Positions 43,164 through 64,000 of a stretch of DNA of 64,000 nt are shown in pieces. Below the pieces are notes generated by a model that saw nothing but the letters and a program-made list of their open reading frames with translations, did not search any database and had not been told where the DNA came from. This DNA is from Candidatus Woesearchaeota archaeon (lineage in GTDB: Archaea; Nanobdellota; Nanobdellia; Woesearchaeales; 0-14-0-80-44-23): contig JAVZCZ010000001.1 in the NCBI GenBank assembly GCA_038874135.1, positions 224,001 through 288,000 of the forward strand, in the 5' to 3' direction. Numbering within the stretch: position 1 is the first letter of the stretch; every line of letters starts with the position of its first letter. Both the position numbers and the translations under genes were made by a program.

Positions 43164-44387
43164 TTATATTATTCCTCCACCACATATTTTATTATTTAAA
43201 ACTAGAACAAATCTGCCCATAGGTTGAACCTCTTCAAATTTGTCAAAGATTAGTGGTGAAGAAGTAGAAATTTTAACCTTGCATATTTCCAAAAAATTGA
43301 TTTTAGAATTATCATCCTTAATAATATGAAGGTCAGCTGAATCAATTTTTTCATAAATCTCAGTTATACTGCAATCCGTCTTTTGAGGACCTAGTCTTAA
43401 AAGTATTTTTTCATTGAGATTTAATGAAGTTTCAGATATCCAAAATATAGTTGCAGTTACTTCTTTCGAAATGATTGGCATTGCTCCATTACAAATTACA
43501 CATCCCCGATCAATTTTTGTTTTTGGTTCTATACTTATTCCTACACTTTCTCCACTATTTACTTCATACTTTTGTTTTAGAAATGAATGTATTTGACTTA
43601 CGCGTGTTTCAGTATTGTAAGGAACAATTATGACATTATCGCCAACTTTTAATCTGCCAGATTCTAATCTTCCAACTATTATTTGTTGGTTATCTATATC
43701 ATAAACATCTTGAACTACCATACGCACGCTTGGATTGCTTTCTTTCTTAGGTAAAATAAAACTATCCAAAGCTTCTGCTAAAGTATTGCCATCATACCAC
43801 GGCATATTCTCTGATTTTCTCACTATGTTATCCCCATCCCTAGCTGTTATTGGAATGATGCTCATCGGGGTTATTGTGATGTTATTCAGAAATTTGAGTA
43901 TTTCAGATTTCACTTCTTCAAATCTTTTTTTATCATAATTAACTAAATCCATCTTGTTTATTACCACAATAATTTGAGATATTCCTAAAAAGTTCAGGAG
44001 ATATGCGTGTCTTTTTGTTTGCTCTTTTACACCTTCCTTTGCATCGATTATTAGAATTCCTGCTTCGGCTTGAGAAGCTCCTGTGATCATATTTTTTATT
44101 AACTCTTTATGTCCCGGCGCATCAATTATTGTATATTTTCTATTTTTTGTTTTAAAAAACACTTGAGTTGTGTCCATAGTAAACTGGTATTCTATCTCCT
44201 CTTTCAAGCTATCTGCAATAAATGCAAATTCCATTTCCTGGCCTAGCTCTGAACAATTTCTTTTCAATTCCTTCAATTTATCTTCAGGAATGCTATTTGT
44301 ATCAAAAAGTAATCTTCCAATTAGAGTGGACTTACCGTGATCAACATGCCCAACTATAACCATGTTTATATTTGCACATTCTTCCAT
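43164..44387 (-). CDS. cysN: Sulfate adenylyltransferase large subunit (GTPase), no fused APS kinase
   Basis: [53 protein letters not shown]; clustered with cysD. Confidence 0.88.
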
Positions 44388-45241
44388 TAATGAATCACCT
44401 TAATTAATAGTATAATCCCTTCAATAAGAGTTGCAGTTCCTATAAAATGAGTTAAAGTTTCAGTATTTGAATTTTTAACAGTTAAGGTTGCAAGAGGAAC
44501 CGCAATAATAGCTCCAATTAATAGGTACGGTAGTAAAATCCAATCAACTGATTTTTTCAGTATAAAATAAGTCGTGATCCCAACAAAACAGGTTAGTGCT
44601 TCAGCAAATGAAGTGATAGCCACCGCTTTTTTAGCATTTATCCCAGCAAATAGTTGACCACTAGTCACAAGTGGGCCATAACCTCCCCCGCTAACTCCTT
44701 TGTTAAAAGAAGCCATAGCACTTACTAAAATTAATTTTCTCCAAGAAAATTTGGTTACTCTATTTAGACGTATCAAGATTAATAAACTCATAAATATTAT
44801 CATAATGCTAATATAAAGGTTTAACCAAAATTGTGAAATCTTTATTGCAAAGATTATTGCAGCAATAGTTCCGAATATGCTGCATATTGAAAGTATTGCT
44901 GCAATTTTTAAATCTAAAGATATTTTTGACGATATATTGTTTTTATTGGTGCTTCTAATTTTTTTGTTAAAAATATGGATAATAAATTCAGGTATTTTCG
45001 AGTGAAAATCAACGTTTCCAAGTTTATGATGAAAATATGCAGCTAAAATTCCGGTTACAAACTCTGAGAGAAGAATAGCTGGAACGACTTGAAACGAATC
45101 AAATCCCATGAGTAATAAAATTGGAGCGAGCAGTGTACCATAACCCATTCCGATAGTTGAATCAAAAAATTCTGCTATGAATGCAAAAATTATTATTACT
45201 ACACCTAAAATTGGATAAAGTGTGAATGTCAAGCTGTACAC
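44387..45241 (-). CDS. TauE/SafE (TSUP) family sulfur-compound transporter
   Basis: [16 protein letters not shown] and [12 protein letters not shown] repeats; multiple TM segments. Confidence 0.85.
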
Positions 45242-45242
45242 C

Positions 45243-46043
45243 TCACATGTATCCTAAGCTCCTAAGTTTTTGCATCATGTAGCTCTTTTCTTTATCTTGT
45301 GAACGACCAGACCTTTCGGCTATTTTTGTTATTTCAAGTTCTTTAACTATTTCTTCAACATTAGAAGCGTTAGATTCAACAGGGAGACAACAGGGAGCGC
45401 AGCCTATACTGCGGTAACGTTTACCATCTTTTGCAAAGTAAAGTGGTACAATTGGAATATTTTCCCTTTGTATATACCGCCATATATCCAGCTCAGTCCA
45501 GTGAAGTAGAGGATGAACTCTTATATGATTTTCGTTATCATATAAGGTGTTGTACTGATCCCAAAGCTCAGCAGGCTGGTGTTTATAGTCCCAATTGAAG
45601 TTTTCATCTCTTGGCGAAAAATATCTTTCTTTAGCTCTTATTCCGTGCTCATCTCTTCTTATACCAAGGAGTATTGCTCTGAATTTGTATTTTTCTATTG
45701 TTTGTTTAAGTGCTTCTGTTTTAAGTGCAGTACAACATTCAAATCTACCTTTTTCAGGTCCTATTCCGTTTTTAATTGCTTCTTCATTCTTGCTTACTAT
45801 TAGATTGAGATTCCATTTTTCAGCATACTCGTCTCTAAATTTATATATCTCAGGAATTTTATAGGTTGTATCAATGTGTATAATAGGAAAAGGAATTTTT
45901 CCAAAAAAAGCTTTTCTCGCCATCCACAACAAACTGGTGGAATCTTTACCTATACTCCACAAAAGAGCTATATTTCTAAATTCAGAATATGCTTCTCTTA
46001 TTATATATATCGTCTTATTTTCTAAATACTCTAAGTAATCCAA
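45243..46043 (-). CDS. cysD: Sulfate adenylyltransferase small subunit
   Basis: WSIGKDS PP-loop, HIDT, LKTEALK, RRDEHGIRAKERYFS, RVHPLLHWTE, YRSIGC, ERSGR; TTG start with GGAGG SD. Confidence 0.93.
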   Translation of the reverse strand: MDYLEYLENKTIYIIREAYSEFRNIALLWSIGKDSTSLLWMARKAFFGKIPFPIIHIDTTYKIPEIYKFRDEYAEKWNLNLIVSKNEEAIKNGIGPEKGRFECCTALKTEALKQTIEKYKFRAILLGIRRDEHGIRAKERYFSPRDENFNWDYKHQPAELWDQYNTLYDNENHIRVHPLLHWTELDIWRYIQRENIPIVPLYFAKDGKRYRSIGCAPCCLPVESNASNVEEIVKELEITKIAERSGRSQDKEKSYMMQKLRSLGYM

Positions 46044-46085
46044 TTTAATATCCTCCTTCTAACATTTATTTTTAATTTTCAAAAG

Positions 46086-48032
46086 TTATTGCAATAAACT
46101 TTTTCCTTCAAAGGATTGAGAGTAGTTAATTTTTAATATATCCAATATTGTAGGGGCTATATCAATTAAGGAGGGATTCTTTTTATTAATCGGAAAATTT
46201 GTGAAAAGTACTCCTGGAACCTCGCTATAATCTACAATATGATCTCCATTCCATAGTTTAGTATTATCCATGATAACTTCAGAAGTAAAACCTCCAATAA
46301 CGCTTTGCCAAGCCATACGATAACCTGGCTCAAATCCTATTAATATATCTGGAGAATCAAATACATAATCGCCGGAGTATATATCAGTAGATTTGTAAAC
46401 TTTTTTTATGATCGTTCTATTTGTTTTAGGATCTTTGAAATCTTTTAATCGCATAATTATCTCATCAATGAGAATTTCTTTATTCTCGGGATCAACAATT
46501 CCGTTTTTTTCTCTTCCTTTAAGGTTTAAGTAAATTCCTGAAAAACCTACAGAATAAGCTTGAGTTTTATTCCAATCCACATATTTGAAAAGTTCACCTG
46601 CATCATTCTCACTGATATTTTTTTTCAAAGTCAAAAACCCATTTCTCATAAGCCACGTATTTATATTAACAGCTCTTTCAAAACTAGTAAATCCGTGGTC
46701 TGAGAATATTATAAGCGCAGTATTATTATCGATACTATCTAACACTTTTCCAATTAGTTCATCTTTCTGCGTATAATAGTTTATAATTGCTTCATTAATT
46801 AAAAAATCTTTCGAGAAATTAAAAATATTTTTATCATCCCAATTGACATGTTGAAGCCTATCCCCCGCGTCAAAACCAAAAGCTAGCACGCCAGAATCTC
46901 TTTGTTTAAACTTATTAAACTCATAAAAAAACATTTTAGTTCTTTCAGATTCAATCTGGTTTATTTGATCTAAAAAAACTTTTCTCGGTATTGCATAATC
47001 ATTAAGTGCATTAGTATCCTCTGGCATTCCGAGAGTATAAAATAATCCAATTTCTCTCGAAAGTTTATAAGAGTAGTCCCTCGGATAGGATATATCAACT
47101 AGCGTTCTTTCAGGATTAAACTGAATTGAAGTCATATACAAACGAAAGTTCGGCTCTATTGATAAAAGATACACTTTAGTTATTGCAGATACCTGTTTTA
47201 AAAAACCCACATTGAAATCAATTTTTATCCAATCGCTCCATTCATTCACTTTAACCTCATACTTTTGAGCATCTAAAAAGATGGTGATGTTATTCTTGTC
47301 TAAGACAATTTTAATTGACTTTTCAATAGGTTTCATATTAGATGATAGAGGTCCTTTGATTACAGAATTAATTATCCCGTTACTCATCGACACATGGATT
47401 ATGTGGGGTGAGCTGTTTTCGGATAAATCCGAAGCATAGAGATAGTATCCGCTTTCAAAACCTCTTATATCAGGAACACCAAGACCAGAAAGCATTACAC
47501 CGTTGATTTTCTCAGGAGGAAAAGTTGCTGGCCACCTTATCACATCAGTAGGTACTCCTGCATCCGAAGTGATCTTCCAAAATGGAACACTTTTTATAGG
47601 ACTTTCGAAGATAAGACCATTTTTAAATTTTTGTTTTGTAATTGATATTTCAGGCAGATAAGTGTTTGGATCTCTTATTATAAAATCTATAACGCCATGT
47701 TTTCCTGGATTTACTCCTGTAGCAGCAGTTGTCCAAGCTACTGGAGTCTCAGGAGGGATAGTAGTTTCAAGTGCAGAAAAACTTCCAAGCTTTGATAATC
47801 GTAAAAAGTTAGGAAGCTTACCTTCTCTCATAAGCTCATTAACTATTTTATAATCCATTGCATCAATCCCAATTATAAGAACTTTAGTATAATTGCCAGC
47901 CATTGAACCACTTTTATTTTTTTTTTCAAAAAAAATTGGATTTTTTAATGTTAAAAATAAAATCAAGCAGGAAATAATAAGTAATAAGAATATAAATATT
48001 TTGATTGTCTGAATACCACTCACTTTTAACAT
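46086..48032 (-). CDS. Membrane-anchored alkaline phosphatase/nucleotide pyrophosphatase (NPP) family protein
   Basis: N-terminal TM; IGIDAMD, PPETPVAW...TGVNPGKHG, DRLQH, SDHGF, GDH, DIAPTIL. Confidence 0.88.
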   Translation of the reverse strand: MLKVSGIQTIKIFIFLLLIISCLILFLTLKNPIFFEKKNKSGSMAGNYTKVLIIGIDAMDYKIVNELMREGKLPNFLRLSKLGSFSALETTIPPETPVAWTTAATGVNPGKHGVIDFIIRDPNTYLPEISITKQKFKNGLIFESPIKSVPFWKITSDAGVPTDVIRWPATFPPEKINGVMLSGLGVPDIRGFESGYYLYASDLSENSSPHIIHVSMSNGIINSVIKGPLSSNMKPIEKSIKIVLDKNNITIFLDAQKYEVKVNEWSDWIKIDFNVGFLKQVSAITKVYLLSIEPNFRLYMTSIQFNPERTLVDISYPRDYSYKLSREIGLFYTLGMPEDTNALNDYAIPRKVFLDQINQIESERTKMFFYEFNKFKQRDSGVLAFGFDAGDRLQHVNWDDKNIFNFSKDFLINEAIINYYTQKDELIGKVLDSIDNNTALIIFSDHGFTSFERAVNINTWLMRNGFLTLKKNISENDAGELFKYVDWNKTQAYSVGFSGIYLNLKGREKNGIVDPENKEILIDEIIMRLKDFKDPKTNRTIIKKVYKSTDIYSGDYVFDSPDILIGFEPGYRMAWQSVIGGFTSEVIMDNTKLWNGDHIVDYSEVPGVLFTNFPINKKNPSLIDIAPTILDILKINYSQSFEGKSLLQ

Positions 48033-48035
48033 TCT

Positions 48036-48275
48036 TTAATCACCATTCTGCATCTTTAAACTCTTGATCCAACGCCATAATTTTAGTATTACTTTTTTCA
48101 TTGGCCTAAACAAGATTTTTATAAAGAAACCAGCAATTACTGAAAAAATAAATAGTAGATAAGGCCAGATTGAACCTACAACTATTCCTCCAGTTCCAGG
48201 ATCAATATAAGCTGAAACTGACGGAAGCAATAGTAAAAAAGTCAATAAGTAAATTAACTCATCAGTAATTCTCAT
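48036..48275 (-). CDS. Small membrane protein with signal peptide and AYIDPGTG motif
   Basis: Hydrophobic signal ending VSA, then YIDPGTGG, one TM segment and a basic tail; first gene of the operon. Confidence 0.75.
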   Translation of the reverse strand: MRITDELIYLLTFLLLLPSVSAYIDPGTGGIVVGSIWPYLLFIFSVIAGFFIKILFRPMKKVILKLWRWIKSLKMQNGD

Positions 48276-48551
48276 AACTTCACACTAATAAAAAATGGGT
48301 ATATAAAGATTGCTAGATCAGATATAAAGATTTAAAAAATAACAGTAAATTTAAACCAGATGAAATATTTCAGTATTTAATAAGCAGAATTCATAATCTT
48401 TAAAAATGGAACAAGTATTTTAGAAGATAGTTAATGCTTAAGTAAATTTAAAATACAAAGTGAATAATTTTTACAAGTAAAATAAAGGTTTGTTTATTGA
48501 ATTAAAAATGATAGCAATAACTAAAAAAAGAACAAATTAAAGTGGTTTCCT

Positions 48552-50048
48552 ATGAAGTTTAAAAGAGAAATTTTTATGTCTATTTTAATTTTGACAATTG
48601 GAATTAGCTTAACATTACCTTTTATTATAAGAAAAATGGTGTTGAATAATAGTACTACTCCTTGTGAAAATTGTAATGTTATCTTAATTACGTTTGATAC
48701 TTTGAGAGCTGATCATCTGGGAGTATATGGCTATACCAGGAATACTTCTCCAAATATTGATAAATTGGCTAAAAGATCTTACGTCTTTACAAATGCATTG
48801 AGTCAAGCGGGAGAAACACGTTTGTCAGTGCCATCATTTATAACCTCTAAGCTTCCTTTGAGCGACAATATATTAGACCTTAAATATAATAATTATGTGT
48901 ATATAAGCAGTTTACACCAAAATGAAACAACAATTGCGGAAATCTTATCAGAGAATAATTATAATACATATGCTGTGATGGGATATTCTGTAATGCTGAA
49001 TCCTAAAACAGGTGTCGCACAGGGTTTTAAAGATTTTGAATATGACTGCAGTAACAATCCTCACACATATAACATATGTCCACCAGATTGGGTTACGTTA
49101 AAAGCAATAAAAATATTAGAACAGAACATTACAAATAAACCATTTTTTTTATGGGTATATTATTTTCAACCACACGCGCCTTATAATCCGCCTTTAAGAA
49201 TATTCCAGAAATTCAGTAGTAATCAGGAATACTCAGATAAAGATCAAAATTTACCTGTGAATTATGATAAAAAGATAGGAATGCTATTGGAAGAAAATGC
49301 ATCAAAGAAGAAAAATTCACCGATTTACTTTCTTTCTGGTGCCGGAGAGTTTAAGTATCTTCATCTGAATGAAAGTGACATTCAATGGTTTATAAATGCT
49401 TACGATGGAAATATAAATTATGCAGACGAACAATTCGGGAGACTATTAATGTACTTAGAAGAATCAGGCTTGTTAAACAATACAATAATAATTATAAATT
49501 CGGATCACGGGGAAATGCTTGGAGATAACTATAACATTGGACATGGAGGATTAAAATATAGTGTATTGCATGTGCCTATAATAGTTTATGTCCCTGGGAG
49601 GAAAGGTGGAAAGATAGCTGAGCCCGTTACAAACGCAGATATAATGCCTACAATTCTAAGTTTGTTAGAAATAAAAACTGATCTAAAAATGATAGGAAAA
49701 AATTTATTTGAAATTAAAGAAAAAAGAGTGCAAATAGCTGAAGCGCCTAATTCTTTCACTGTAGTATATAAAAATTGGAAAATTTTATCATACTACTCTT
49801 CATTTAATGAAATAGAAGAAAACTGCAGTAAAAATGATCGCGTGTTTGATATACTAAAAGACCCACAAGAAAAAAATGGAAAATGGCAAAATGATGAACA
49901 AAAAGAAATAATTTGTAACACCTTAAAAAAAGAATATTTTAAGATAATAACAAACAGAAATGAACAAGTGGAAGTGACAGACGATACAAGCATAAATCTT
50001 GACACCGCTACCATAGAAAAATTAAAATCATTAGGATATGCCAATTAG
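48552..50048 (+). CDS. Membrane-anchored sulfatase-like (AP superfamily) protein
   Basis: NVILITFDTLRADHL, PHAPY, YDGNI.YAD, SDHGE, LHVP, DIMPTIL, KLKSLGY; Thr at the nucleophile position. Confidence 0.85.
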   Translation: MKFKREIFMSILILTIGISLTLPFIIRKMVLNNSTTPCENCNVILITFDTLRADHLGVYGYTRNTSPNIDKLAKRSYVFTNALSQAGETRLSVPSFITSKLPLSDNILDLKYNNYVYISSLHQNETTIAEILSENNYNTYAVMGYSVMLNPKTGVAQGFKDFEYDCSNNPHTYNICPPDWVTLKAIKILEQNITNKPFFLWVYYFQPHAPYNPPLRIFQKFSSNQEYSDKDQNLPVNYDKKIGMLLEENASKKKNSPIYFLSGAGEFKYLHLNESDIQWFINAYDGNINYADEQFGRLLMYLEESGLLNNTIIIINSDHGEMLGDNYNIGHGGLKYSVLHVPIIVYVPGRKGGKIAEPVTNADIMPTILSLLEIKTDLKMIGKNLFEIKEKRVQIAEAPNSFTVVYKNWKILSYYSSFNEIEENCSKNDRVFDILKDPQEKNGKWQNDEQKEIICNTLKKEYFKIITNRNEQVEVTDDTSINLDTATIEKLKSLGYAN

Positions 50049-55443: not shown

Positions 55444-56268
55444 ATGATCGTCCATTACCGCAAAATAAAAGAAGATAAAGGTTTAATGTTTTTGAGAAAA
55501 AGCTGGTTGAAATTTAAAAAAGATGTTTTTATTATAAAAACTTTAGCGCTTAATGAGTTTAAGCTTAGATATTTAAATGCAAAATTTGGTTACTTTTGGT
55601 TAGTTATCTCTCCGCTAGTGATGTTATTAGCATTATACATAGTGTTTTCTAAAGCAGTTCATATAGAAGTTCCACATTATCAGTTTTTTCTGCTTTTAGG
55701 TATTGTAATTTGGAATTTTTTTTCAGAAGCCACCTTGCAAGGAATGAATTCGTTAATAAACAACAAGGGGGTATTAAACTCAATCTCTATTTCAAAACAC
55801 TACTTAGTTATTGCTTCTTTTATTGCTTCATTACTATCATTTTTTATAAATTTAGGCATATTTTTTTTGTTTGAAATGGTAAGAGGAATAACATTCAAAT
55901 TATCTCATCTATTGTTTGCGTTGACCATTCTTGAATGCGCACTTTTGGTTTTAGGGATTTCGTTTATTTTATCTGTCGCTTATCCACTATCACGAGATGT
56001 TGCACATTTGTGGAATATATTCATAACTATTAGTTTTTGGGTTTCTCCAATTGTTTACAGAGAAACGCAAATTCCAAAGCAATACTTAAGATATTACATG
56101 CTTAACCCGATCGCCAGAATAGTGAATGAGGCAAGAGACATTTTAATATATGATTATGTTCCTTCAATAAAACAAATATTTATTACTATAGCTATAGTTT
56201 TAATAATTTTTATATTTGGTTTAATATATTTTAATAAAAAAGTAGATAAAGTTGTAGAAGCCCTATGA
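55444..56268 (+). CDS. wzm: Polysaccharide ABC exporter permease (Wzm/TagG)
   Basis: FKLRYLNAKFGYFWLVISPL, WNFFSE, RDVAHLW, SPIVY, LNP. Confidence 0.9.
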   Translation: MIVHYRKIKEDKGLMFLRKSWLKFKKDVFIIKTLALNEFKLRYLNAKFGYFWLVISPLVMLLALYIVFSKAVHIEVPHYQFFLLLGIVIWNFFSEATLQGMNSLINNKGVLNSISISKHYLVIASFIASLLSFFINLGIFFLFEMVRGITFKLSHLLFALTILECALLVLGISFILSVAYPLSRDVAHLWNIFITISFWVSPIVYRETQIPKQYLRYYMLNPIARIVNEARDILIYDYVPSIKQIFITIAIVLIIFIFGLIYFNKKVDKVVEAL

Positions 56269-56277
56269 GGATAAAAA

Positions 56278-58215
56278 ATGAATGTAATAGAATTAGACAA
56301 TATTTCCAAAATATACGCTGCTAATAATTGTGAAAAAAGTATTTATGCTCTAAAAGATTTTAGTATAAAGATTAAAAAGGGAGAGATAGTAGGAATTATC
56401 GGACCTAATGGTTCTGGAAAAACAACACTCTTAAAAATAATTGCAGGAATTTTAAAGCCGGATTCTGGAAGGGTAATAGTTAAAGAAAAAATACTTCCAT
56501 TTATTGAGATGGGTTCCGGATTAAGATTAGAACTGAGCGGGAAAGAGAATATAAGAATGAATTGTGCCATGTTAGGAATACCACCTAATCAGATTGAAGA
56601 ACAAATGAAAAGAATAATCTCTTTTTCAGGATTATCTGAATTTATTGATGAACCAGTAAGAACTTACTCAAGTGGTATGAAAGCAAGACTCGTATTTAGC
56701 AGTTTTCTATTAAATGATTTTGATGTTTTATTAATTGATGAAGCAATTGCAGTTGGAGACGAGCTATTTCGTAATAAGAGTTTTAATTTATTACAAAAAT
56801 TAAAAAATTCAAAAAAAACTGTTTTAATCGTATCACATGACTTAAACATTATTCAAAAAAATTGTAACAGGGTTTTATACTTAGATAACGGGATAAAAAG
56901 AGAGTATGGTCCTCCGGAAAAAGTCATCAGTAAATATTTTGATGATTTATATAAAAGAGTAACAAAGAGATTTATCCAGAAATTTGAAAAAGTTGTAGAT
57001 GAACTTAAAAATTTAAAAAATAGTTCAGATGTGATTAAAGAAGAAAAAACTGAGGATGCTACTTTATTTGAAAAAATTAGAGCTTGGAGCGCAGAAAAAG
57101 AAAGAGAGAAAGTTTTAAAACGCATTAAAGAGTTAGAGTTTTGGTTAGAAGACAATTGTTACGAACAGATAAACATTTTAAATAAACAGTTAAGTTATAT
57201 AAATGAAAATTTAGAAAAAAGTAAAGATAATAGAATAAAATCTAGATTGCTGAAACAGAAAGTAAAGATATTAAAAATATTAGAAAGAATATTAACAGAA
57301 GATTATACACTCAAAAAAAATAATTTTGAAGAATTTAGTAAAGAGATAGTACTCTTAGTAAAAAATGGATTACAAGTAATAAAAGATAAAAAGAGAGAAT
57401 TGTTTGAACTTAGAAGATATAAAAATTTAATAGAACAGGAAGTGTCTGACAAAAGTGTCGTTAGAGAGCAATTAGATTATATTGAAAGTAGGTTACAATT
57501 GTTAATGTTGTTTGATGGAAGAGTATGCACTAATGATGAATTGAAAAAAATAAAAGAAACAGCCGAAGAAAATCCTCACGGCGGAATACAAATAGCACAA
57601 GATATTTTAAACAAGAAAGTATTAAGAATAGAAGAAGAATTAGTTCAAACAAAGTTCAGATTGGAAAATAAGAAAGAGAATTCTGTAAAATTAAAAAACA
57701 AGATGAAAAAATTAGAAAAACAAAAAGATAAAATACTAAAAATTCTGATAAGTATACAAAAACAATTGAAAATAAGAAGAGCAGAAGATACACTGAAAAT
57801 AATCAAGGTGAATTTGAAAACTAAAATCGGAAATACTTATAAAGAAACACAAACTTTTCAAACGCATGCAAAAATGAAAATTGAGATTGAGTATTATACA
57901 GAAAAAATAATTAAAGATCCAGTCTTCGGAATTGCTTTCTATAGTTACGATGGACGATTGATATATGGACCTAACACTGAGATAGACAAACTTTGTTTAA
58001 AAGAAATAGGAAGGAGAGGAAAGATAGAATACACAATAGAAAGATTACCTTTTTTGCCTGGGAAGTACATATTGACTGTAGCAGCACATACAAAAGATAA
58101 CTATATCCCCTATGATATAAGAAACAAAACTATAATATTTAGAGTTATGGGAGAAAATAGAGAGAACGGATTAATTCACATTGAAGGCAGATGGAAACAT
58201 TTTAGATATGTTTAA
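56278..58215 (+). CDS. wzt: Polysaccharide ABC exporter ATPase (Wzt) with long coiled-coil insert and C-terminal carbohydrate-binding domain
   Basis: GPNGSGKTT, YSSGMKARL, IDEAIAVGD, VSHD; about 280 aa of heptads; PVFGIAFYS.DG..I.GPNT...LPFLPGKY Wzt_C. Confidence 0.88.
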   Translation: MNVIELDNISKIYAANNCEKSIYALKDFSIKIKKGEIVGIIGPNGSGKTTLLKIIAGILKPDSGRVIVKEKILPFIEMGSGLRLELSGKENIRMNCAMLGIPPNQIEEQMKRIISFSGLSEFIDEPVRTYSSGMKARLVFSSFLLNDFDVLLIDEAIAVGDELFRNKSFNLLQKLKNSKKTVLIVSHDLNIIQKNCNRVLYLDNGIKREYGPPEKVISKYFDDLYKRVTKRFIQKFEKVVDELKNLKNSSDVIKEEKTEDATLFEKIRAWSAEKEREKVLKRIKELEFWLEDNCYEQINILNKQLSYINENLEKSKDNRIKSRLLKQKVKILKILERILTEDYTLKKNNFEEFSKEIVLLVKNGLQVIKDKKRELFELRRYKNLIEQEVSDKSVVREQLDYIESRLQLLMLFDGRVCTNDELKKIKETAEENPHGGIQIAQDILNKKVLRIEEELVQTKFRLENKKENSVKLKNKMKKLEKQKDKILKILISIQKQLKIRRAEDTLKIIKVNLKTKIGNTYKETQTFQTHAKMKIEIEYYTEKIIKDPVFGIAFYSYDGRLIYGPNTEIDKLCLKEIGRRGKIEYTIERLPFLPGKYILTVAAHTKDNYIPYDIRNKTIIFRVMGENRENGLIHIEGRWKHFRYV

Positions 58216-58227: not shown

Positions 58228-60024
58228 ATGAAAAGCCAATTTAAAAATCCTGAGGAAATGCGGAAGTTTAAAAAACGAATGAAACAAGTTGCTCAAAAAT
58301 ATATTAGAAAATTGAAAAAGAACCGCCATATAATAGGCATTGCATTTGATGGATCTATAGTACATGGAAGAGTAACAAAGAATTCAGACATCGATATCTA
58401 TTGTTTTTATGAGCCCGCCTATTTTAAAAAGGAGATAGAAGGAAAAAAAGAATTTTACGATATAATAGACAAGTCTGGATTTATAGTTCAAATAAATAAT
58501 ATTTCAATAGAATTGTCTGACAAGAATATTTTTCATCAGTTGTTAAACAATTCACATGAAGAGTGGGTAAGGTACAAGAATCATTGTAGAATGCTATTGC
58601 CAGTTTATGATCCCCTAGGAAAAATTGCTGCCTTTAAAAGAAGAATGTCAAAAATTTACGATGAAGAATTGGCTTATATTCTTCCGATATATTTAAAGGA
58701 AATTGCGCTTACCAGTTCAGCAATACGAAAGTTTTCATTAATCCCGTTAAAAAAAAATGATGAGTTAATAAAAAATATATTTGCTTTAAGATGTGTATAT
58801 GCGTCTCTCTATGCTACTTACCTTGCGAATAGGAAATTGCCCCCATATCAGAATCCTCTTTTTAAATTTGAGATTTCCTCACTTAAAAACAAGCCCCTCT
58901 CTCTTTGCAGCCTATTAGAAAAAGGATCAAAGGATTATACGGGTATCGCTTTAAAAATTGCAGATGAAACATTAGGAATGTTTATCCCAATTGCCCAAGA
59001 TCTTTGTAGAAAAGTTGGAGTAAAATTGTATAATAATGAAGATTATTTAAAGATAGATGCTTATGCAATTTCTCAGTATGTCAAAGAAGAGTTCTTACAC
59101 GCTATAGAAGCAGATTTGGGAATTTTAAAAAGAAGGGAACTATTAAAAAAGAAATGCTTATATGACTACTATGCTTTTGCGTTAAGAAAAAATATTTATG
59201 ACGAAATGGCAAGAACAAAAGATCAGGCTAAGATTGAAAAAAAGATTGAAGAACTTATTAAAATTCTTAGGATCGGTTTAAAAAATAATTTTGATAATAA
59301 AGATATTTTAAAAGGCGAACTTGCAGATGTTCTTAACAAAAAAGCAGCACTTCCTTTTCTAAACATAAGAGAAAGAATAAAAGCAGAAGAAGAGGCAAGA
59401 GAGATAAGAAATACTATAAAAAATTATAATACAGACCCGAATTTGATCAGGAAGAAAATTGAAGAATATGAATTATTAATGCGGGAATTAAAACTAAAAA
59501 CAAACGACAAACTTACTATCACAAAAATAAAAAATTACATTAGAATTCTAAAAGAGGACCTGAGGAAAAACAAAAATAGAGAGGCATTAACAAAAAAATT
59601 AGGGATTATAAAAATAAGAAATGTGAAATTCTTGAATAAAAAAATGTATCCATCTCATATTTTCAGATCGGGAGATCAGATGATAATTAAAATAGATTAT
59701 CATGCACTTAGAAAAGTAGAAAATCCTGTTTTCGGCATCGCTTTTTATAGTGAAGATGGCGTACACATCGCGGGCCCGAACACTAGATTTAGTGGTCTAA
59801 AGATAAAGTATGTAAAAGGAAAAGGCAGTGTATTTTTCAAAATTAATAAACTGCCATTGTTGGAAGGAAAATATTTTGTTACAGTAGCAGTCCACCCATA
59901 TAAGTCGTTTGAACCTTATGATGTACATATAAAGCGGTATAGCTTTAAAGTTGTAGATTCTCCGCCTGAGCCGGGATTCTTACATCTTGATTCGGAATGG
60001 ATAATAAGTAAGCAAAAGCAGTAA
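58228..60024 (+). CDS. Nucleotidyltransferase (pol-beta superfamily) fused to Wzt-type carbohydrate-binding domain
   Basis: GSIVHGRVTKNSDID near the N-terminus; helical middle; C-terminal PVFGIAFYSEDGVHIAGPNT...LPLLEGKY. Confidence 0.78.
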   Translation: MKSQFKNPEEMRKFKKRMKQVAQKYIRKLKKNRHIIGIAFDGSIVHGRVTKNSDIDIYCFYEPAYFKKEIEGKKEFYDIIDKSGFIVQINNISIELSDKNIFHQLLNNSHEEWVRYKNHCRMLLPVYDPLGKIAAFKRRMSKIYDEELAYILPIYLKEIALTSSAIRKFSLIPLKKNDELIKNIFALRCVYASLYATYLANRKLPPYQNPLFKFEISSLKNKPLSLCSLLEKGSKDYTGIALKIADETLGMFIPIAQDLCRKVGVKLYNNEDYLKIDAYAISQYVKEEFLHAIEADLGILKRRELLKKKCLYDYYAFALRKNIYDEMARTKDQAKIEKKIEELIKILRIGLKNNFDNKDILKGELADVLNKKAALPFLNIRERIKAEEEAREIRNTIKNYNTDPNLIRKKIEEYELLMRELKLKTNDKLTITKIKNYIRILKEDLRKNKNREALTKKLGIIKIRNVKFLNKKMYPSHIFRSGDQMIIKIDYHALRKVENPVFGIAFYSEDGVHIAGPNTRFSGLKIKYVKGKGSVFFKINKLPLLEGKYFVTVAVHPYKSFEPYDVHIKRYSFKVVDSPPEPGFLHLDSEWIISKQKQ

Positions 60025-60027
60025 TGG

Positions 60028-61224
60028 TCATGTCAGCTTTTTAAAAAAAAGTAGCGGAGCCATAAGCTTGTGAATGTGAGCGTTCATTTCAATGTTATCG
60101 CATTCTTTTTTACATCCTGAACGGGCATGTGGATCATTTCCAATGTATTTAAAGAAATTTCCTTCTTTTTTATATTTAAATGTTTTTTTTCTAAAAAAGT
60201 TTTGCTTTTCTCCATACCATATGTCTTTAAAATTCTCTTTAAAAATATTTCCTGAAGGAATTCTATGAGCTTTTAAACAGGGTATAACATTACCATTAGC
60301 CATTATTCTGGCAAAAGTCCAGCCTGCGTAACAAGGCATTGAATCTACCACGATATTATCATAACTGGTATATTTTATCATGTTTTGCAAACGAATTTTT
60401 AACAGTTCAATATTTTTAACTTTTGTTTTGCTTTGATAAGTTGTTTCCAATTGATTAGTTAATAAGTCTAACTCTGAAATTTCTTTTAAAAGAACTTTAG
60501 CTTGTTTTTTGCTAATCTGCAAAAAAGAAGTTTTTTTAGGTATAATATCTACAGGAGTAAAATCAACTGAATCGGCACCAACTTCAAAAGCAAATTTTAT
60601 CATTTCATTAAATTCATGAGCATTAACATTCATAAGAACATTATGTATATTTACAAAAGGCTTACTAACATGGTTTACTTTTTTTATTTCATTTAAAAAT
60701 TTAAGATTTTCTTTTAACTTAAAAAAAGTATTAGGTTCACTACCCAAGTGAGTTTTGTTATAAGTTTCAGCAGTAGCTGCCCATATACTAATATTCATTT
60801 CGTCAACACCAAGTCCGACCAGTTCTCTTAACATTTTCTTACTTAAGAGAGTAAAATTAGTGCTCATTGCACATCTCATTCCATACTTTTTTATTAGTTT
60901 TATAACTTGCATGCTATTAGAATGCATAAATGGCTCTCCACCACCTGTCAGATATACTTCTCTGACGCCCAACTCATTAAATTCTTTAACAAGCTCTTCT
61001 ATTTTTTTAAAAGGTATCTCTTGTTTAATTTCCTCAGGAGACATTGCTAAATCTTTTAAAAAGGGGGAGCGACACCAGCAGGCAATACATCGGTTATTAC
61101 ATTTATTAGTCAAGTCAATTTGCACAATAAGAGGGCCTGTGATTGATCTGCCTGCTAGAACACCTAATCCGATAAGAAAGTAATGTTTTAAACTTTTTAT
61201 TTTTCTTACAAGTTCCAATTTCAC
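60028..61224 (-). CDS. Radical SAM protein with SPASM/Twitch domain (paralog 3)
   Basis: CNNRCIAC, GGGEPF, PCYAGW..RIMANGNVIPC, CKKEC. Confidence 0.9.
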   Translation of the reverse strand: MKLELVRKIKSLKHYFLIGLGVLAGRSITGPLIVQIDLTNKCNNRCIACWCRSPFLKDLAMSPEEIKQEIPFKKIEELVKEFNELGVREVYLTGGGEPFMHSNSMQVIKLIKKYGMRCAMSTNFTLLSKKMLRELVGLGVDEMNISIWAATAETYNKTHLGSEPNTFFKLKENLKFLNEIKKVNHVSKPFVNIHNVLMNVNAHEFNEMIKFAFEVGADSVDFTPVDIIPKKTSFLQISKKQAKVLLKEISELDLLTNQLETTYQSKTKVKNIELLKIRLQNMIKYTSYDNIVVDSMPCYAGWTFARIMANGNVIPCLKAHRIPSGNIFKENFKDIWYGEKQNFFRKKTFKYKKEGNFFKYIGNDPHARSGCKKECDNIEMNAHIHKLMAPLLFFKKLT

Positions 61225-61237
61225 ACCTTTCTAATTT

Positions 61238-62488
61238 TTAGATTATTTTTTTCATAATCTTATCAAATAAATTAAGAGAATTAAGCATGTCTTCGGTATC
61301 TTGATTTAATGCAATGTTATCACATGTTTTAAAACAATTTGTTGTTAGGAAGAAAGAATCTTTTGTTTTATCATTTTTGTATCGACGTCTTATGTCAGCA
61401 AGTTTAGCATTATTCCATATCTCTTTAAAGCTCTGTTTGTAAATATTGCCCAAAACTTCATCAGATTTAAGACAAAAGTTAACATCACCATTAGCAAGTA
61501 TTCTGCTATATGTCCATCCTGCATAACAAGGAATATTGTTAATTACCTCGCACTCATATTCACCCTTTCCTGCATTTTTGCTTAACATTCTGGTTATAAA
61601 TCTATCATAATCAAGTATAAAAAGGTTAGATTTTGAAAGATTGGTTTCATCTTCATCAATTATCTGCTTTGCTTTTTTTATTTTTTGTATTACTTCTTTT
61701 CTTTGTTTTTCGTTTAATATGAGAAATTCTGTTTTGCCAGAGATTGGATCAACTGGAACAAACTGCACTGAATCAGCTTCTACTTCTAGTCCAAGTCGGG
61801 CCATGTCTTCTATTTCAGTATAGTTCCAGCTCGTTATTACATTGTAAAGATTTACGTGTGGCGTATGCCGAATTCTCTTAATACTAGCTAAGTATTTTAA
61901 ATTATCTTTGATTTGAAGAAAAGTTGAAACATTTTTATTAGGATGCATCTTTACATACATTTCAGGTGATGCGGCCCAAAGACTTACGTTGATTTGATCA
62001 AAATTAATGGATACAAGTTCGTCTATCATTTCTTTATTTAATAGAGTAAAGTTGGTATTTATGTCACATTCAAAACCAAGTTTTTTTGCATATTTCAGAA
62101 TTTGCATTATTTCAGGATGAAGAAAAGGTTCTCCTCCCCCACCAAAATATAATTTACGGGTTCCTAATGAGTGCAATTCACGCATAACCTTTTTTATTAT
62201 ATCAAAAGATAATTCTTGTTTTTTCCATTCGCGCAAATCTTTTGAATCTTCTAAATAGGGTGAACCAACCCAGCAGGCGATGCAATTATTATTACACTTA
62301 TTAGTTATGTTAATTTGCACTAGTGTTGGACCGGTGAATGTTTTATAGACTGAATCTATCCCTTTTGCAATTCTAAGATTATGAAAGTAATATTTTAAAC
62401 CTCTTATAATGTCACTTCTTTTATATTCTAAGTAATCTAAGTGTGTGCGAAAGTGTACAGGAAGTTTTTTTCTTCGCCTTATTAGCAT
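61238..62488 (-). CDS. Radical SAM protein with SPASM/Twitch domain (paralog 2)
   Basis: CNNNCIAC, GGGEPF, PCYAGW..RILANGDVNFC, CFKTC. Confidence 0.9.
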   Translation of the reverse strand: MLIRRRKKLPVHFRTHLDYLEYKRSDIIRGLKYYFHNLRIAKGIDSVYKTFTGPTLVQINITNKCNNNCIACWVGSPYLEDSKDLREWKKQELSFDIIKKVMRELHSLGTRKLYFGGGGEPFLHPEIMQILKYAKKLGFECDINTNFTLLNKEMIDELVSINFDQINVSLWAASPEMYVKMHPNKNVSTFLQIKDNLKYLASIKRIRHTPHVNLYNVITSWNYTEIEDMARLGLEVEADSVQFVPVDPISGKTEFLILNEKQRKEVIQKIKKAKQIIDEDETNLSKSNLFILDYDRFITRMLSKNAGKGEYECEVINNIPCYAGWTYSRILANGDVNFCLKSDEVLGNIYKQSFKEIWNNAKLADIRRRYKNDKTKDSFFLTTNCFKTCDNIALNQDTEDMLNSLNLFDKIMKKII

Positions 62489-62498
62489 AGTTTTCGCC

Positions 62499-63749
62499 TT
62501 ATTGAGTATTATTTTTAGTAAATTTTTTCCTCAGCTTTAGATATAATGCGGCACTTTTAAGTAAAAACCTTTGAGATTTAGTTAGTGACTTAACACGCTG
62601 ATGCATAGGTTCGTTCTGCCAGAGATTGTCACAAGTTTTTATACACTGAAATGGTACAAAGTAAGGATCTGTGAGTGGAAGGTGTGTTCCTTTATATCGG
62701 AATTCTTTTTGTAATTTATCTTCCCAGATTTGTTTGAATCTTTTTGAATATACATTACCCATGGGTTTTAAATAACCCTTGCAGCACGGCACTACATTTC
62801 CATTTGCCATAACTCTGGAAAACATCCATCCTGCATAACAAGGAATATGCTTTATAACAGATTCATCGTATATTCCTTTATCTGCTTTTTCACTTTTTAT
62901 TCTGCGTTCAAATTCTTCAAGAGCGACAACTTGTAGGGGATACTCTCTTTTTGGACTAGAAATTGTCTGAGTAGCAGGGTCTATTCTTTTTTTAAGCTCT
63001 TCTATTTCTTTGAGTAAGAAATTTCTCTCCTCATCTTTTAAAAGAAGAACGTCAGTTCTACCTTCTACAGGATCCATTGCTACGAACTGAACAGCTTCAC
63101 TTCCAGTTTCAAAAGCTAGTTCAACCATCTCATTAATTTCGTGGTAATTCTTATCAAATATTACGTTATAAAGTTTTATTGTTGGCTTTACCTTTCCAGT
63201 CTCTTTTTTATAATTATTAATAAATTTAAGAACTTTTACTATACGAGAAAAAGTTTCACCAGTTTGATTGGCATGTGTAGCTGCGTAAGTTTGAGGCGTG
63301 GCTGCCCACACACTTACAGTCATAAGGTCAACATTCCAATCTACTAATTTTCTAGCAATTTCTTCTGTTACTAAAGTAAAATTTGTATTAATGTCAAGTG
63401 CAAATCCTTTTTTTGTAGCATATTCTATGAGCTCCAAGGCATTTGGATGCATGAATGGTTCTCCACCGCCAACATATTTGAGCTGTCTAGTTCCCATAGA
63501 GTAGGCATCATCTAGAATTCCTTTAACAATTTCTGTAGGTAAAGTTTTTACTTGCTCTTCAGGAGTCATAAATTTATCTCTAAGCAGTGGAGAACGACAC
63601 CAGCACGCCAAACATTGATTGTTGCACATATTAGTTAAATCTATATGCAACATCTCTGGACCTTTGAATGCTTCTTTTCCATCTAACACTCCAACTAAGT
63701 CTAAATTATTTCTTATAAAGTTAGATAGTTTACTTATACTAACTTTCAT
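62499..63749 (-). CDS. Radical SAM protein with SPASM/Twitch domain (paralog 1)
   Basis: CNNQCLAC, GGGEPF, PCYAGW..RVMANGNVVPCC, CIKTC. Confidence 0.9.
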   Translation of the reverse strand: MKVSISKLSNFIRNNLDLVGVLDGKEAFKGPEMLHIDLTNMCNNQCLACWCRSPLLRDKFMTPEEQVKTLPTEIVKGILDDAYSMGTRQLKYVGGGEPFMHPNALELIEYATKKGFALDINTNFTLVTEEIARKLVDWNVDLMTVSVWAATPQTYAATHANQTGETFSRIVKVLKFINNYKKETGKVKPTIKLYNVIFDKNYHEINEMVELAFETGSEAVQFVAMDPVEGRTDVLLLKDEERNFLLKEIEELKKRIDPATQTISSPKREYPLQVVALEEFERRIKSEKADKGIYDESVIKHIPCYAGWMFSRVMANGNVVPCCKGYLKPMGNVYSKRFKQIWEDKLQKEFRYKGTHLPLTDPYFVPFQCIKTCDNLWQNEPMHQRVKSLTKSQRFLLKSAALYLKLRKKFTKNNTQ

Positions 63750-64000
63750 ATTTTTACCTCTCGTTTTAATTCGTGTTGATGAATTACAACATCTCTAGGT
63801 ATATTCGTAGTGTATACTACTAGATTAAGCTCTTTTAATATTTCTAATAATTCTTTCCCTCTTCTCATTCGGGTTTCATAGTTATCTCCATTTTTTGTAT
63901 ACCATGTTGCTGCTCTTTGGTCTTCATCTCCTTTAAAAAGTAGTCCATATTTTTCCTGATTTATATCCAGTTCAGAGTTTAGGTTTATACAAAGTGTATT
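63746..64000 (-). CDS. C-terminal fragment of a gene running off the window, possibly a B12-binding radical SAM protein
   Basis: Open frame NTLCINLNSELDINQEKYGL...WYTKNGDNYETRMRRGKELL...EVKI*; its TGA overlaps the next ATG (ATGA). Confidence 0.55.
   Translation of the reverse strand, partial: NTLCINLNSELDINQEKYGLLFKGDEDQRAATWYTKNGDNYETRMRRGKELLEILKELNLVVYTTNIPRDVVIHQHELKREVKI

Follow-up and report, generated by a model that had tools for sequence, protein, structure and literature searches.

A low-GC surface-glycan island of a Candidatus Woesearchaeota archaeon, with probable tailoring of the glycan by paired radical SAM enzymes

INTRODUCTION

What does an archaeon build with a block of low-GC (guanine-plus-cytosine) DNA that carries genes for sulfate activation, glycosyltransferases (GTs), an ATP-binding cassette (ABC) exporter and eight radical S-adenosylmethionine (SAM) domains? 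This question was raised by a stretch of 64,000 nucleotides from a Candidatus Woesearchaeota archaeon, termed the window here, which comprises bases 224,001 to 288,000 of a single contig of 909,956 bp. A first-pass annotation of the window had described an island starting at position 43164 and had read it as an acquired pathway for an exported surface glycan with radical-modified, sulfated and possibly nucleotide-capped sugars. Radical SAM enzymes that act on carbohydrates are, to our knowledge, described almost exclusively from the biosynthesis of antibiotics. DPANN archaea and Omnitrophota live attached to other cells, a surface glycan being the contact layer with hosts and viruses. In the analyses described here, the locus was read as an ABC-transporter-dependent surface-glycan island, probably of the hypervariable type, which is a known kind (PMC4535781; bioRxiv 10.64898/2026.06.07.730766). 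The best overall explanation, which is probably correct, is a low-GC surface-glycan island whose product is tailored by paired radical SAM enzymes and exported by Wzm/Wzt. Positions are those of the window unless the genome is named.

RESULTS

Extent and composition of the island

The contig has a GC content of 40.8% and zero N, and the genome is 99.4% complete with 0.24% contamination. At 43.1 kb of the window, the GC fraction falls from 0.38-0.43 to 0.27-0.33 (about 0.40 to about 0.30). The low-GC block extends from position 43164 to genome position 306,400, 18.4 kb past the end of the window, where it borders the gene for ribosomal protein S7; the island had previously been drawn as more than 20 kb running to position 64000, a delineation that was accurate for the start but not for the end. 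The island of ~39 kb accounts for 4.3% of the genome length, and the longest low-GC run genome-wide was detected at genome positions 267,001 to 307,001. The composition-normalized tetranucleotide signature of the island was correlated with that of the rest of the genome with an r of 0.88, the most deviant value for a 39-kb segment, as compared to 0.98 ± 0.013 (minimum, 0.92) for 41 other segments of the same size. The compositional break reported earlier at 43.1 kb was, therefore, real and strong. Two tandem HIT-family genes of normal GC content (41943 to 43118, minus strand) abut the CysN end of the island. All of the gene classes that had been named (CysN, TauE, CysD, two alkaline phosphatase [AP]-superfamily proteins, GT-C, GT4, GT2, Wzm, Wzt, a nucleotidyltransferase [NTase]-Wzt_C protein and radical SAM proteins) were detected at their places by Pfam and NCBIfam searches.

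Genes for glycan assembly, export and chain termination

The exporter consists of Wzm, an ABC-2 permease (55444 to 56268, plus strand; PF01061, 47.4 bits against a cut-off of 26.9), and, after a gap of 9 nt, the 645-aa Wzt (56278 to 58215, plus strand), which combines an ATPase domain (PF00005, 80 bits, residues 25 to 157) with a Wzt_C carbohydrate-binding domain (CBD; PF14524, 74.8 bits, residues 506 to 634). The best NCBIfam names, Wzm/RfbD (galactan permease) and TagH/Wzt, were both below the equivalog cut-offs. Wzm was 56% identical to its counterpart in locus L033, a metagenomic contig described below, and 39-40% identical to those in L038 and G045, a locus and a genome of relatives. Between the ATPase domain and Wzt_C, Wzt has a coiled-coil-like linker of ~260 residues (stretches 253-393 and 436-525) with zero Pfam matches, and it was the most divergent core gene, with 37% identity in L033.

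Three glycosyltransferase genes precede the exporter on the plus strand. A GT-C fold enzyme of the PMT_2/ArnT-like type (51548 to 53140; PF13231, 44.7 bits) has ~11 hydrophobic segments by hydropathy, and a PMT_2 gene was present at the same end of a relative's cluster. A GT4 enzyme, GT4_1 (53377 to 54498; PF00534, 143.5 bits), and a GT2 enzyme (54495 to 55424; PF00535, 92.2 bits) have orthologues in L033 with 54% and 55% identity, respectively; the latter is a candidate lipid-phosphate sugar synthase or primer.

The exporter is followed by NTase_CBD (58228 to 60024, plus strand), a 598-aa protein with an NTase domain, a helical and coiled-coil region and a Wzt_C domain (PF14524, 90.7 bits; cut-off, 30.4). 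Matches to Polbeta and NTP_transf_2 were weak, and a G-S-x9-S-D-I-D-I motif and DKSG were invariant in three homologues. The CBD matched that of Aquifex Wzt (PDB 8dky and 6o14). For the N-terminal 450 aa, five matches at E ≤ 1e-3, two of them at E ≤ 1e-10, were detected among 1.84 billion representative proteins. The public gene call for this open reading frame (ORF), P0091, has only 395 aa, with 100% identity over 55% of the query; a 594-aa orthologue, P0090, with 56-57% identity along the full length, supports the 598-aa form inclusive of the NTase domain. The only other full-length homologue in relatives (L029:14595-16502, minus strand; genome G003, contig C113) is a low-GC gene (0.32) in surroundings of 0.42 GC, which adjoins a two-nucleotide-binding-domain ABC ATPase and lies outside any glycan cluster.

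In the ABC-dependent O-antigen systems of Klebsiella and Escherichia coli, the enzyme that terminates the chain is placed at the distal tip of a molecular ruler made of coiled coil, and only terminated chains are exported, through binding of the cap by the carbohydrate-binding module (CBM) of Wzt (PMC11231755; PMC9445017; PMC3482155); the Klebsiella pneumoniae O7 terminator carries an extra CBM (PMC11231755; PMC9445017). The layout of NTase_CBD, a catalytic module, helices with coiled coil and a CBM, makes it by analogy a candidate chain terminator or cap reader, and its catalytic fold would be new for a terminator. Of the nucleotide capping proposed earlier, the NTase motif and a terminator-like architecture were retained, but no chemistry is assignable. 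NTase_CBD is one of three coiled-coil proteins of the island, the others being Wzt and a GT4 beyond the window end, GT4_CC.

A complex of Wzt (residues 240 to 645) with NTase_CBD (residues 300 to 598) was predicted with a score of 0.62, as compared to 0.00 for the best of three controls, and reached a mark that 51 of 78 solved complexes and 2 of 108 mismatched pairs attain. At least 80% of contacts were common to the runs, partner pLDDT (predicted local distance difference test) was at least 72, and the interface was CBD to CBD. As CBD homodimers of Wzt have been solved, this result may reflect only the likeness of the CBDs, and the prediction would not tell hetero- from homodimers.

Radical SAM enzymes

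The eight radical SAM domains of the island are distributed over seven genes and represent 8 of the 17 PF04055 matches of the genome; a CxxxCxxC motif was present in every one. Four complete genes and a probable partial one had been reported in the window. The former were confirmed as one gene with a cobalamin (B12) domain and three with a SPASM domain, and the latter is the 3′ end of a gene for a double B12 radical SAM protein of 1,004 aa.

B12rSAM_1 (50161 to 51534, plus strand) matched PF04055 with 77.7 bits and PF02310 with 29 bits, the latter below the cut-off, and has its CxxxCxxC at residue 203. AprD4, the sugar 3′-dehydratase of apramycin synthesis, was its nearest solved relative (PDB 6fd2; E, 2.9e-17). 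The double B12 protein (minus strand; two matches each to PF04055 and PF02310) occupies positions 63746 to 64000 with its last 84 codons and extends to genome position 290,760 (L001:746-3760); its motifs are at residues 217 and 750, and a 69% identical orthologue was present in L033.

The three SPASM genes are on the minus strand: SPASM_1 (60028 to 61224; PF04055, 67.4 bits; PF13186, 39.5 bits), SPASM_2 (61238 to 62488; 80.9 and 45.8 bits) and SPASM_3 (62499 to 63749; 58.2 and 36.6 bits). Identity among the paralogues was 37-40% (SPASM_1 versus SPASM_2, 40%), and SPASM_1 and SPASM_3 have orthologues in L033 with 59% and 78% identity. Although their PF13186 scores exceeded the cut-off of 21.5, the seven-cysteine motif of a full SPASM domain was absent from all three. 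In 18 family members, the invariant cysteines of SPASM_2 were C65, C69 and C72 together with C321, C339, C385 and C389, and the auxiliary cysteines of the paralogues are spaced C-x17-C-x45-C-x3-C. Only four auxiliary cysteines, enough for one cluster, are thus present, indicating a Twitch-like rather than a full SPASM domain. The predicted model of SPASM_2 (pLDDT, 89.6) has a single long N-terminal helix before the core and no N-terminal domain of the size of a RiPP (ribosomally synthesized and posttranslationally modified peptide) recognition element. Foldseek neighbours of this model were SkfB, SuiB, CteB, DesII, BlsE, PqqE, anSME (anaerobic sulfatase-maturating enzyme), MoaA, viperin and BtrN, with template modelling scores of 0.43-0.58 and identities of 14-19%.

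SAM could be supplied by a bacterial-type synthetase, MetK, which is present in the genome (genome 365,612-366,031, minus strand; PF02773, 215.9 bits); the archaeal-type SAM synthetase (PF01941) is absent from it.

Recurrence of the gene set in relatives and in the wider SPASM family

An orthologue of SPASM_2 with 72% identity was found on 22 metagenomic contigs. Three of these contigs, and L033 in detail, were collinear with the island core. In L033, a 16-gene core with the order GT4-GT2-Wzm-Wzt-NTase_CBD-three SPASM-double B12 radical SAM-GT2-GT4_CC-GT4-SDR (short-chain dehydrogenase/reductase) exhibited identities of 54-78%, with the exception of Wzt. Genome G061 (via L042) also holds the core cassette, and its S7 protein was 81% identical to that of the island genome, as compared to 74-77% for relatives of the same family and 58-66% for relatives of the same order. 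As the cassette is common to close relatives, vertical descent of the core is the simplest reading. Two distinct S7 genes (81% and 61%) were present in G061, pointing to a mixed bin. The records of G061 and G062 (L042 and L038) are titled "uncultured Methanosarcinales archaeon"; their S7 identities of 81% and 58% are in the family- and order-level ranges, and the titles are probably wrong.

Two other loci have a similar content. In genome G045, which belongs to the same order, the 65.5-kb contig C12 (L025 to L028) carries ~17 SPASM and 8 B12 radical SAM ORFs (~25 in total), three copies of AP_PDE (an AP-superfamily enzyme of the island), three of its sulfatase-like protein, GT2s and homologues of the HprK-like and three-transmembrane (3-TM) proteins of the distal island, followed by GT2, a separate Wzt_C protein, Wzt, Wzm and GT4, at 22-44% identity to the island. 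Further copies are located on contigs C13 and C17 of G045, with 15 SPASM matches in that genome. The 263-kb contig of L038/L118 carries GT2, Wzm, Wzt with a CBD, a B12 radical SAM gene, four SPASM genes, a micro-protein, AP_PDE, CysD and an arylsulfotransferase-like gene, and then a further SPASM gene, a 2,098-aa protein with at least four B12 radical SAM modules (L118:999-7295, plus strand), three SPASM genes and a GT4-coiled-coil-like gene. A 1,459-aa protein with three radical SAM-SPASM modules is encoded at L040:10925-15304 (plus strand).

SPASM homologues were present in 6 of 60 genomes of the same order, and a profile scan of species-representative genomes detected 369 relatives of the family. 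The best 80 of these 369 were mostly from Candidatus Omnitrophota, with others from Woesearchaeota/Nanoarchaeota, Planctomycetia, Desulfobacterota and other groups. Neighbours were counted (BLAST E, 1e-8) in 53 of these best 80 loci, namely those with a length of 12 kb or more: a B12 radical SAM gene was present in 52, GT4 in 40, a second SPASM copy in 34, Wzt in 28, Wzm in 24 and GT2 in 23. Continuous ORFs in the 80 loci joined B12 and SPASM modules in either order (27 cases), two to four SPASM modules (18), two to three B12 modules (7), a GT and SPASM (3) and B12 and a GT (1). GT4 was fused to SPASM in P0038 and in an 842-aa protein of L039 that adjoins Wzt and AP_PDE; GT2 was fused to SPASM in P0078, inside a locus with Poly_export, Wzz, Wzy and a flippase (Wzx/Wzy/Wzz). 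The genes of the set do, therefore, co-occur in other taxa, and the objection that they never do so, which the first-pass annotation had raised against its own proposal, falls away. The link of the radical SAM genes to an exported surface glycan was likewise upheld, by the collinear core, the look-alike loci of G045 and L038/L118, the GT fusions and the counts in the 53 loci.

These data favour a single functional neighbourhood that serves an exported surface glycan, and they support the assignment of the SPASM-type radical SAM enzymes of the island to glycan-linked families. No description of SPASM and B12 radical SAM cassettes in Wzm/Wzt loci was found in open-access papers and bioRxiv, and a cassette of SPASM/Twitch and B12 radical SAM genes that is conserved, widespread and linked to the assembly of glycans is, apparently, an undescribed feature.

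The sulfate arm

An operon on the minus strand at the left end of the island begins with a gene for a 79-aa micro-protein (48036 to 48275) that has a signal-peptide-like N terminus, an AYIDPGTG motif, one TM segment and a basic tail and had zero family matches in Pfam. The following genes encode AP_PDE (46086 to 48032; 648 aa; PF01663, 116.9 bits), an AP-superfamily enzyme of the NPP (nucleotide pyrophosphatase/phosphodiesterase) type with an N-terminal hydrophobic membrane anchor; CysD, the ATP-pyrophosphatase subunit of sulfate adenylyltransferase (45243 to 46043; NF003587, 365 bits against a cut-off of 195); a TauE/SafE (TSUP) anion permease with ~8 hydrophobic segments by hydropathy (44387 to 45241; PF01925, 95.4 bits), which probably imports sulfate; and a 407-aa CysN-like GTPase subunit of sulfate adenylyltransferase (43164 to 44387) without a domain for APS (adenosine 5′-phosphosulfate) kinase. 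CysN reached 330.4 bits with TIGR02034 (cut-off, 336.1) and similar scores with EF-1alpha models, yet the latter were far below the EF-1alpha cut-offs.

Homologues of CysD, with 52-68% identity, were present in 10 of the 60 same-order genomes, and CysN was paired with CysD both here and in the loci of five relatives (43-51% identity). In five of five CysD neighbourhoods examined, CysN was adjacent or separated by TauE only, usually with glycan, radical SAM or AP-superfamily genes alongside; relative G008 has the same gene order, CysD-TauE-CysN, and two relatives have a small AP-superfamily gene directly 3′ of CysN. The overlapping trio of micro-protein, AP_PDE and CysD is conserved in L038. 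There, a 65-aa homologue of the micro-protein (50% identity, AYIDPGTG kept) lies directly upstream of AP_PDE and overlaps its start, the protein between micro-protein and CysD is 45-46% identical to AP_PDE over its full length, CysD is 60% identical, and an Arylsulfotran_2 (arylsulfotransferase-like) gene follows CysD. CysD and CysN are, on this evidence, genuine, and activation of sulfate to APS is supported. A CysDN module lacking a kinase or sulfotransferase and accompanied by conserved AP-superfamily and micro-protein partners is a second new feature.

Next to the operon on the plus strand is a gene for a membrane-anchored AP-superfamily protein with a sulfatase fold (48552 to 50048; PF00884, 169.7 bits), of which G045 has three homologues at its locus. 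A regular-expression scan for the formylglycine motif C/S-x-P/A-x-R detected none in either AP-superfamily protein, and the sulfatase-fold protein would be a hydrolase or transferase rather than a classical sulfatase. No anSME model was among the best 25 NCBIfam matches listed per gene for the three SPASM genes and the distal gene rSAM333, and anSMEcpe ranked 16th among the Foldseek matches of the SPASM_2 model (15% identity). A pairing of sulfatase with anSME was rejected for lack of the motif and of a family match. The two HIT genes were rejected as an APS phosphorylase partner, given their normal GC content and the absence of CysDN linkage in five relatives.

The island beyond the window end

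Past the 1,004-aa gene, the island encodes a GT2, a GT4 with ~230 aa of coiled coil (GT4_CC), a further GT4, two SDR sugar-nucleotide enzymes and a 3-TM protein of unknown family. More distally, a fourth B12 radical SAM protein, an HprK-like P-loop protein, the 333-aa rSAM333 and a 90-aa PqqD-like protein are encoded, and the distal end holds a second GT-C, a 388-aa protein of unknown family and a 601-aa YcaO.

A 36-aa ORF beginning MKRKIVWKKPTLRKI (L002:498-608; genome 299,498-299,608, minus strand) is co-directional with and downstream of the PqqD-like, rSAM333 and HprK-like genes (L002:704-2821, minus strand) and has a leader-like W-K-K-P-x-L motif (WKKPTL). The PqqD-like protein scored 18.9 bits, below the cut-off of 23.4. 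rSAM333 has nine C-terminal cysteines, including CxxCx5CxxC, and hence a full SPASM domain. Its nearest homologue, P0095 (28% identity), lies in a cluster with a 34-aa peptide (MSYTKPELITV..., motif YTKPEL), a 96-aa protein and two ABC exporters; between the 90-aa and 96-aa proteins no similarity was detectable. The [W/Y]-x-K-P-x-L motif of both peptides resembles PqqA-type leaders. The orphan YcaO gene (L002:5592-7397; genome 304,592-306,397, plus strand; GC, 0.27) is directly upstream of the S7 gene, with no TfuA or obvious substrate gene seen for it. A role of YcaO as a factor linked to S12/S7 was dropped, as S12 is encoded at genome position 37 kb and YcaO was not found in the 60 relatives; YcaO would, rather, be island cargo. 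rSAM333 was likewise not found among the 60 same-order relatives.

On balance, the distal end of the island is somewhat better read as separate RiPP-like cargo: the last ~7 kb would consist of a RiPP-like cassette (36-aa peptide, PqqD-like protein, full-SPASM radical SAM protein and HprK-like kinase), the second GT-C, the protein of unknown family and the orphan YcaO. Not all of the radical SAM genes of the island would then serve the glycan, as rSAM333 sits in this cassette.

DISCUSSION

The gene context and the GT fusions provide strong evidence that the radical SAM enzymes of the island would tailor the glycan. Several observations weigh against this explanation or against parts of it. None of the radical SAM genes of the island reached an NCBIfam cut-off, and the fold of SPASM_2 was equally near to the RiPP maturases SkfB, SuiB and CteB and to the sugar-acting DesII, BlsE and BtrN; Foldseek comparison of the SPASM_2 model does not discriminate between peptide and sugar substrates and was discarded for that use. 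The 99.4%-complete genome had no match to primer families PF00953 (WecA/AglH type) and PF02397 (WbaP type). With no such enzyme, priming by GT2 on dolichyl phosphate is probable; the archaeal AglJ and AglK are GT2 enzymes that act on dolichyl phosphate. The N-domain family of NTase_CBD has only ~3 full-length members, and the predicted structure, made from a three-sequence alignment, was poor (mean pLDDT, 59.7; NTase core and CBD below 50) and was discarded for fold searches. In the sulfate arm, the sole matches to APS kinase (PF01583) in the genome, two apparent kinase genes, were P-loop fragments of FtsY and SRP54 and were rejected as such; a true CysN-APS kinase fusion (230 bits) was present in relative G019. 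The three sulfotransferase families that were searched (PF00685, PF13469 and PF14269) had no match in the genome. The sulfation branch is, therefore, incomplete as encoded. Lastly, AP_PDE (1 of 53 loci), the sulfatase-like protein (4 of 53) and CysD (0 of 53) were rare near SPASM homologues in these bacterial loci. The sulfated sugars of the first-pass annotation thus stand as regards CysD and CysN but not as regards the later steps; glycan sulfation is plausible, if a little short of an even chance, and the AP-superfamily ectoenzymes may, as a hypothesis only, have a direct role in sulfate transfer.

An island of recent foreign DNA, for instance from Omnitrophota-like bacteria, or an assembly chimera would account for the lowest GC content, the longest low-GC run and the most deviant tetranucleotide signature of the genome, and for the few or absent relatives of YcaO, rSAM333 and the NTase N-domain in the order. 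The SPASM family is most numerous in Omnitrophota, phylum labels were intermixed on its tree (23 changes against a minimum of 10), and SPASM_2 was in a supported group of seven rows that includes Planctomycetota and Omnitrophota; the three paralogues fell into separate supported clades, each with its own orthologue. As this tree is unrooted, no donor or direction is readable from it. The genome is, however, a single 910-kb contig with 0.24% contamination, and signs of mobility were lacking: there were zero integrase or transposase Pfam domains among the island ORFs, no tRNA inside the island or at its edges and no meaningful boundary repeat, the longest word common to both edges being an AT-rich one of 14 nt. 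The 16-gene core is collinear in G061, and CysD and SPASM were present in 10 and 6, respectively, of the 60 same-order genomes. A second low-GC patch (genome 719,000-734,000, outside the window) has SDR, GT2 and GT4 homologues and no match to the radical SAM proteins of the island; it is probably another glycosylation locus, indicating that low GC accompanies this gene class in the genome. The flanking synteny from HIT to S7 was not kept, even in the complete relative G019, and hence insertion and replacement are indistinguishable; in the same-genus genome G001 the whole region is missing, S7 and HIT included, so the absence of the island genes there is uninformative. A recent foreign or chimeric origin is thus improbable, and the statement that the pathway was acquired did not find support: composition is deviant, but marks of insertion are absent, the core is shared with a genome of 81% S7 identity, and CysD and SPASM are endemic in the order.

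Slightly less probable still is that the arrays of radical SAM enzymes act on a lipid, either of the membrane or within a glycolipid, by tetraether, ladderane-like or hopanoid-like C-C bond formation or C-methylation, with the GTs and Wzm/Wzt making and flipping the head group. Points that also count against glycan tailoring are cited in favour of this reading: SPASM_2 weakly matched the tetraether synthase Tes (NF045702; E, 4.6e-15) and GDGT-MAS (7tol; E, 2e-5; Foldseek rank 40), and the best score of the double B12 protein was to HpnJ (367.5 bits), with 208 bits to "rSAM_ladder_B12". All of these scores were below the family cut-offs (HpnJ, 577.6; ladder, 360; Tes, 450), and HpnJ itself modifies a hopanoid at its sugar head group. 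"Ladderane" clusters have been called by genome-mining papers in Omnitrophota, the phylum richest in the SPASM family (PMC9902471). The same family is, nevertheless, fused to GT2 and GT4 and located in Wzx/Wzy or Wzm/Wzt loci with sugar-nucleotide SDRs, the exporter has carbohydrate-binding domains, and no lipid-synthesis genes were seen in the island.

That the SPASM paralogues and B12 modules are peptide maturases of the RiPP or protein type (proteusin- or sactipeptide-like), with the GTs decorating a peptide product or surface protein, is the least probable alternative: its top structural neighbours (SkfB, SuiB and CteB), sub-threshold NCBIfam matches (WgkB, ScmE/F, ApyD and RiPP C-methyltransferases) and the RiPP-like cassette and YcaO of the same island are set against the absence of a small ORF beside the three SPASM genes (intergenic gaps, 10-13 nt), paralogues with no domain of recognition-element size and with four auxiliary cysteines against nine in rSAM333, a family that is GT fused and that has GT4, Wzm and Wzt as neighbours in the majority of long loci, and a cassette and YcaO not found in the 60 relatives as against a conserved glycan core.

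Returning to the exported, radical-tailored glycan, the data show the identities of the genes, how far the island extends and that the gene set recurs. The pathway that we infer, with respect to chemistry, order of steps and acceptor, would start with remodelling of nucleoside diphosphate sugars by the two SDRs, of dehydratase/epimerase type. On the cytoplasmic side of the membrane, GT2 and GT4 enzymes would assemble the glycan on a lipid carrier. As the chain grows, it would be tailored by the paired radical SAM enzymes, namely the three SPASM paralogues of Twitch-like type and the four modules with a B12 domain. On the precedent of AprD4, DesII, BtrN and GenK-type enzymes, the chemistry may be deoxygenation, oxidation, epimerization or C-methylation at sugar C-H positions. 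A coiled-coil machine, comprising GT4_CC, the terminator-like NTase_CBD and the coiled coil and CBD of Wzt, would set and read the chain end, and the finished chain would be exported by Wzm/Wzt. At the cell exterior, its transfer or decoration may fall to the two GT-C enzymes and to the two AP-superfamily enzymes with membrane anchors. The translationally coupled operon of micro-protein, AP_PDE, CysD, TauE and CysN would import sulfate and activate it to APS, most likely for sulfation of the glycan. A third new feature would be the NTase-fold, CBD-bearing putative terminator.

A bolder and quite tentative form of this proposal, to which we assign a modest chance, is that the island is one of an undescribed, widespread class of surface-polysaccharide loci, present mainly in Woesearchaeota and Omnitrophota, which are ultra-small and depend on hosts. 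Here, Twitch/SPASM and B12 modules strung together in the manner of an assembly line, some of them fused to GTs, would rewrite C-H bonds of a lipid-linked glycan. Two steps without precedent would be peculiar to the present archaeon: sulfation would proceed directly from APS via the AYIDPGTG micro-protein and the NPP-type ectoenzyme, with neither APS kinase nor classical sulfotransferase, and an NTase-fold terminator would set a cap read by paired CBDs on Wzt and the terminator.

Enzymes of the types known from antibiotic pathways accompany the export of cell-surface polysaccharides here, as a modular and conserved element, in hundreds of uncultured species, and, given this link, an entire class of unusual sugars at cell surfaces may have gone unrecognized. 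That half of the radical SAM repertoire of the genome is located in the island implies that the glycan is important. Targets for enzymology are the GT-fused radical SAM proteins, the CysDN module with its AP-superfamily partner and the new terminator fold for ABC-dependent glycan assembly. Genome-mining tools probably mislabel such loci as RiPP or "ladderane" clusters.

The island resembles the low-GC hypervariable islands of Haloquadratum walsbyi (cell-wall island; PMC4535781) and the polysaccharide cassettes of Omnitrophota (bioRxiv 10.64898/2026.06.07.730766) in being a large AT-rich block of GT, sugar-modifying and export genes without mobility genes and in a content that differs between relatives, its distal part not being found in the 60 same-order genomes. 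It differs in a core that is conserved and collinear with that of a close relative and in a density of radical SAM genes that is not described for those islands in the papers found. For the sulfate arm, the comparison is with cluster VI beside the capsule locus of Campylobacter jejuni HS:19, with the order cysD-cysN-anion permease-cysC-sulfotransferase-GT-anSME-like radical SAM (PMC8743553). Both have CysD, CysN and an anion permease within a surface-glycan region that has radical SAM genes close by, and in neither organism is a use of CysD/CysN for cysteine synthesis likely. The island genome is without cysC and without a recognizable sulfotransferase, exactly the last two steps, and has instead the conserved, translationally coupled micro-protein and the NPP-type ectoenzyme; with no formylglycine motif in its sulfatase-fold protein, there is no role for an anSME. 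The distal sub-cluster alone is comparable with PqqA/PqqD/PqqE, through a peptide ORF with a leader motif, a co-directional PqqD-like protein and a nine-cysteine radical SAM protein; it differs in a sub-threshold PqqD match, an HprK-like P-loop kinase, the lack of an exporter or protease and a peptide unlike PqqA save for the leader motif.

The export machinery is most like that of the O-antigen systems of E. coli O9a and K. pneumoniae O3, O4, O5, O7 and O12 (WbdA/WbdD, WbbB and Wzm/Wzt-CBM). The same Wzm, Wzt with Wzt_C and cytoplasmic GT2 and GT4 enzymes are present, coiled-coil proteins again carry a catalytic module (in the island, a GT4 with ~230 aa of coiled coil and an NTase with coiled coil), and the second CBM on the putative terminator recalls ORF6 of K. 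pneumoniae O7. In contrast, the host is an archaeon without an outer membrane or lipid A, Wzt itself has a coiled-coil-like linker of ~260 residues between its ATPase and CBD, the putative terminator would have a pol-beta nucleotidyltransferase fold rather than being a kinase, methyltransferase or Kdo transferase, and the genome is without a WecA-type primer, with eight radical SAM domains embedded in the locus.

Among characterized radical SAM enzymes, the likeness is to AprD4 (6fd2), by the sequence match of B12rSAM_1, and to DesII (8hzv), BlsE (7vob) and BtrN (4m7t), by alignment with the SPASM_2 model. The four conserved auxiliary cysteines of SPASM_2, a single Twitch-type cluster, are a further likeness to BtrN, which has the same number of auxiliary cysteines as the island paralogues with similar spacing. 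The enzymes of the island differ from these antibiotic-pathway proteins in that identity is only 14-19% and no curated family contains them, in that their context is an export locus for a cell-surface polymer and not a small-molecule cluster, and in that enzymes of their type occur as arrays and as tandem fusions of two to five modules.

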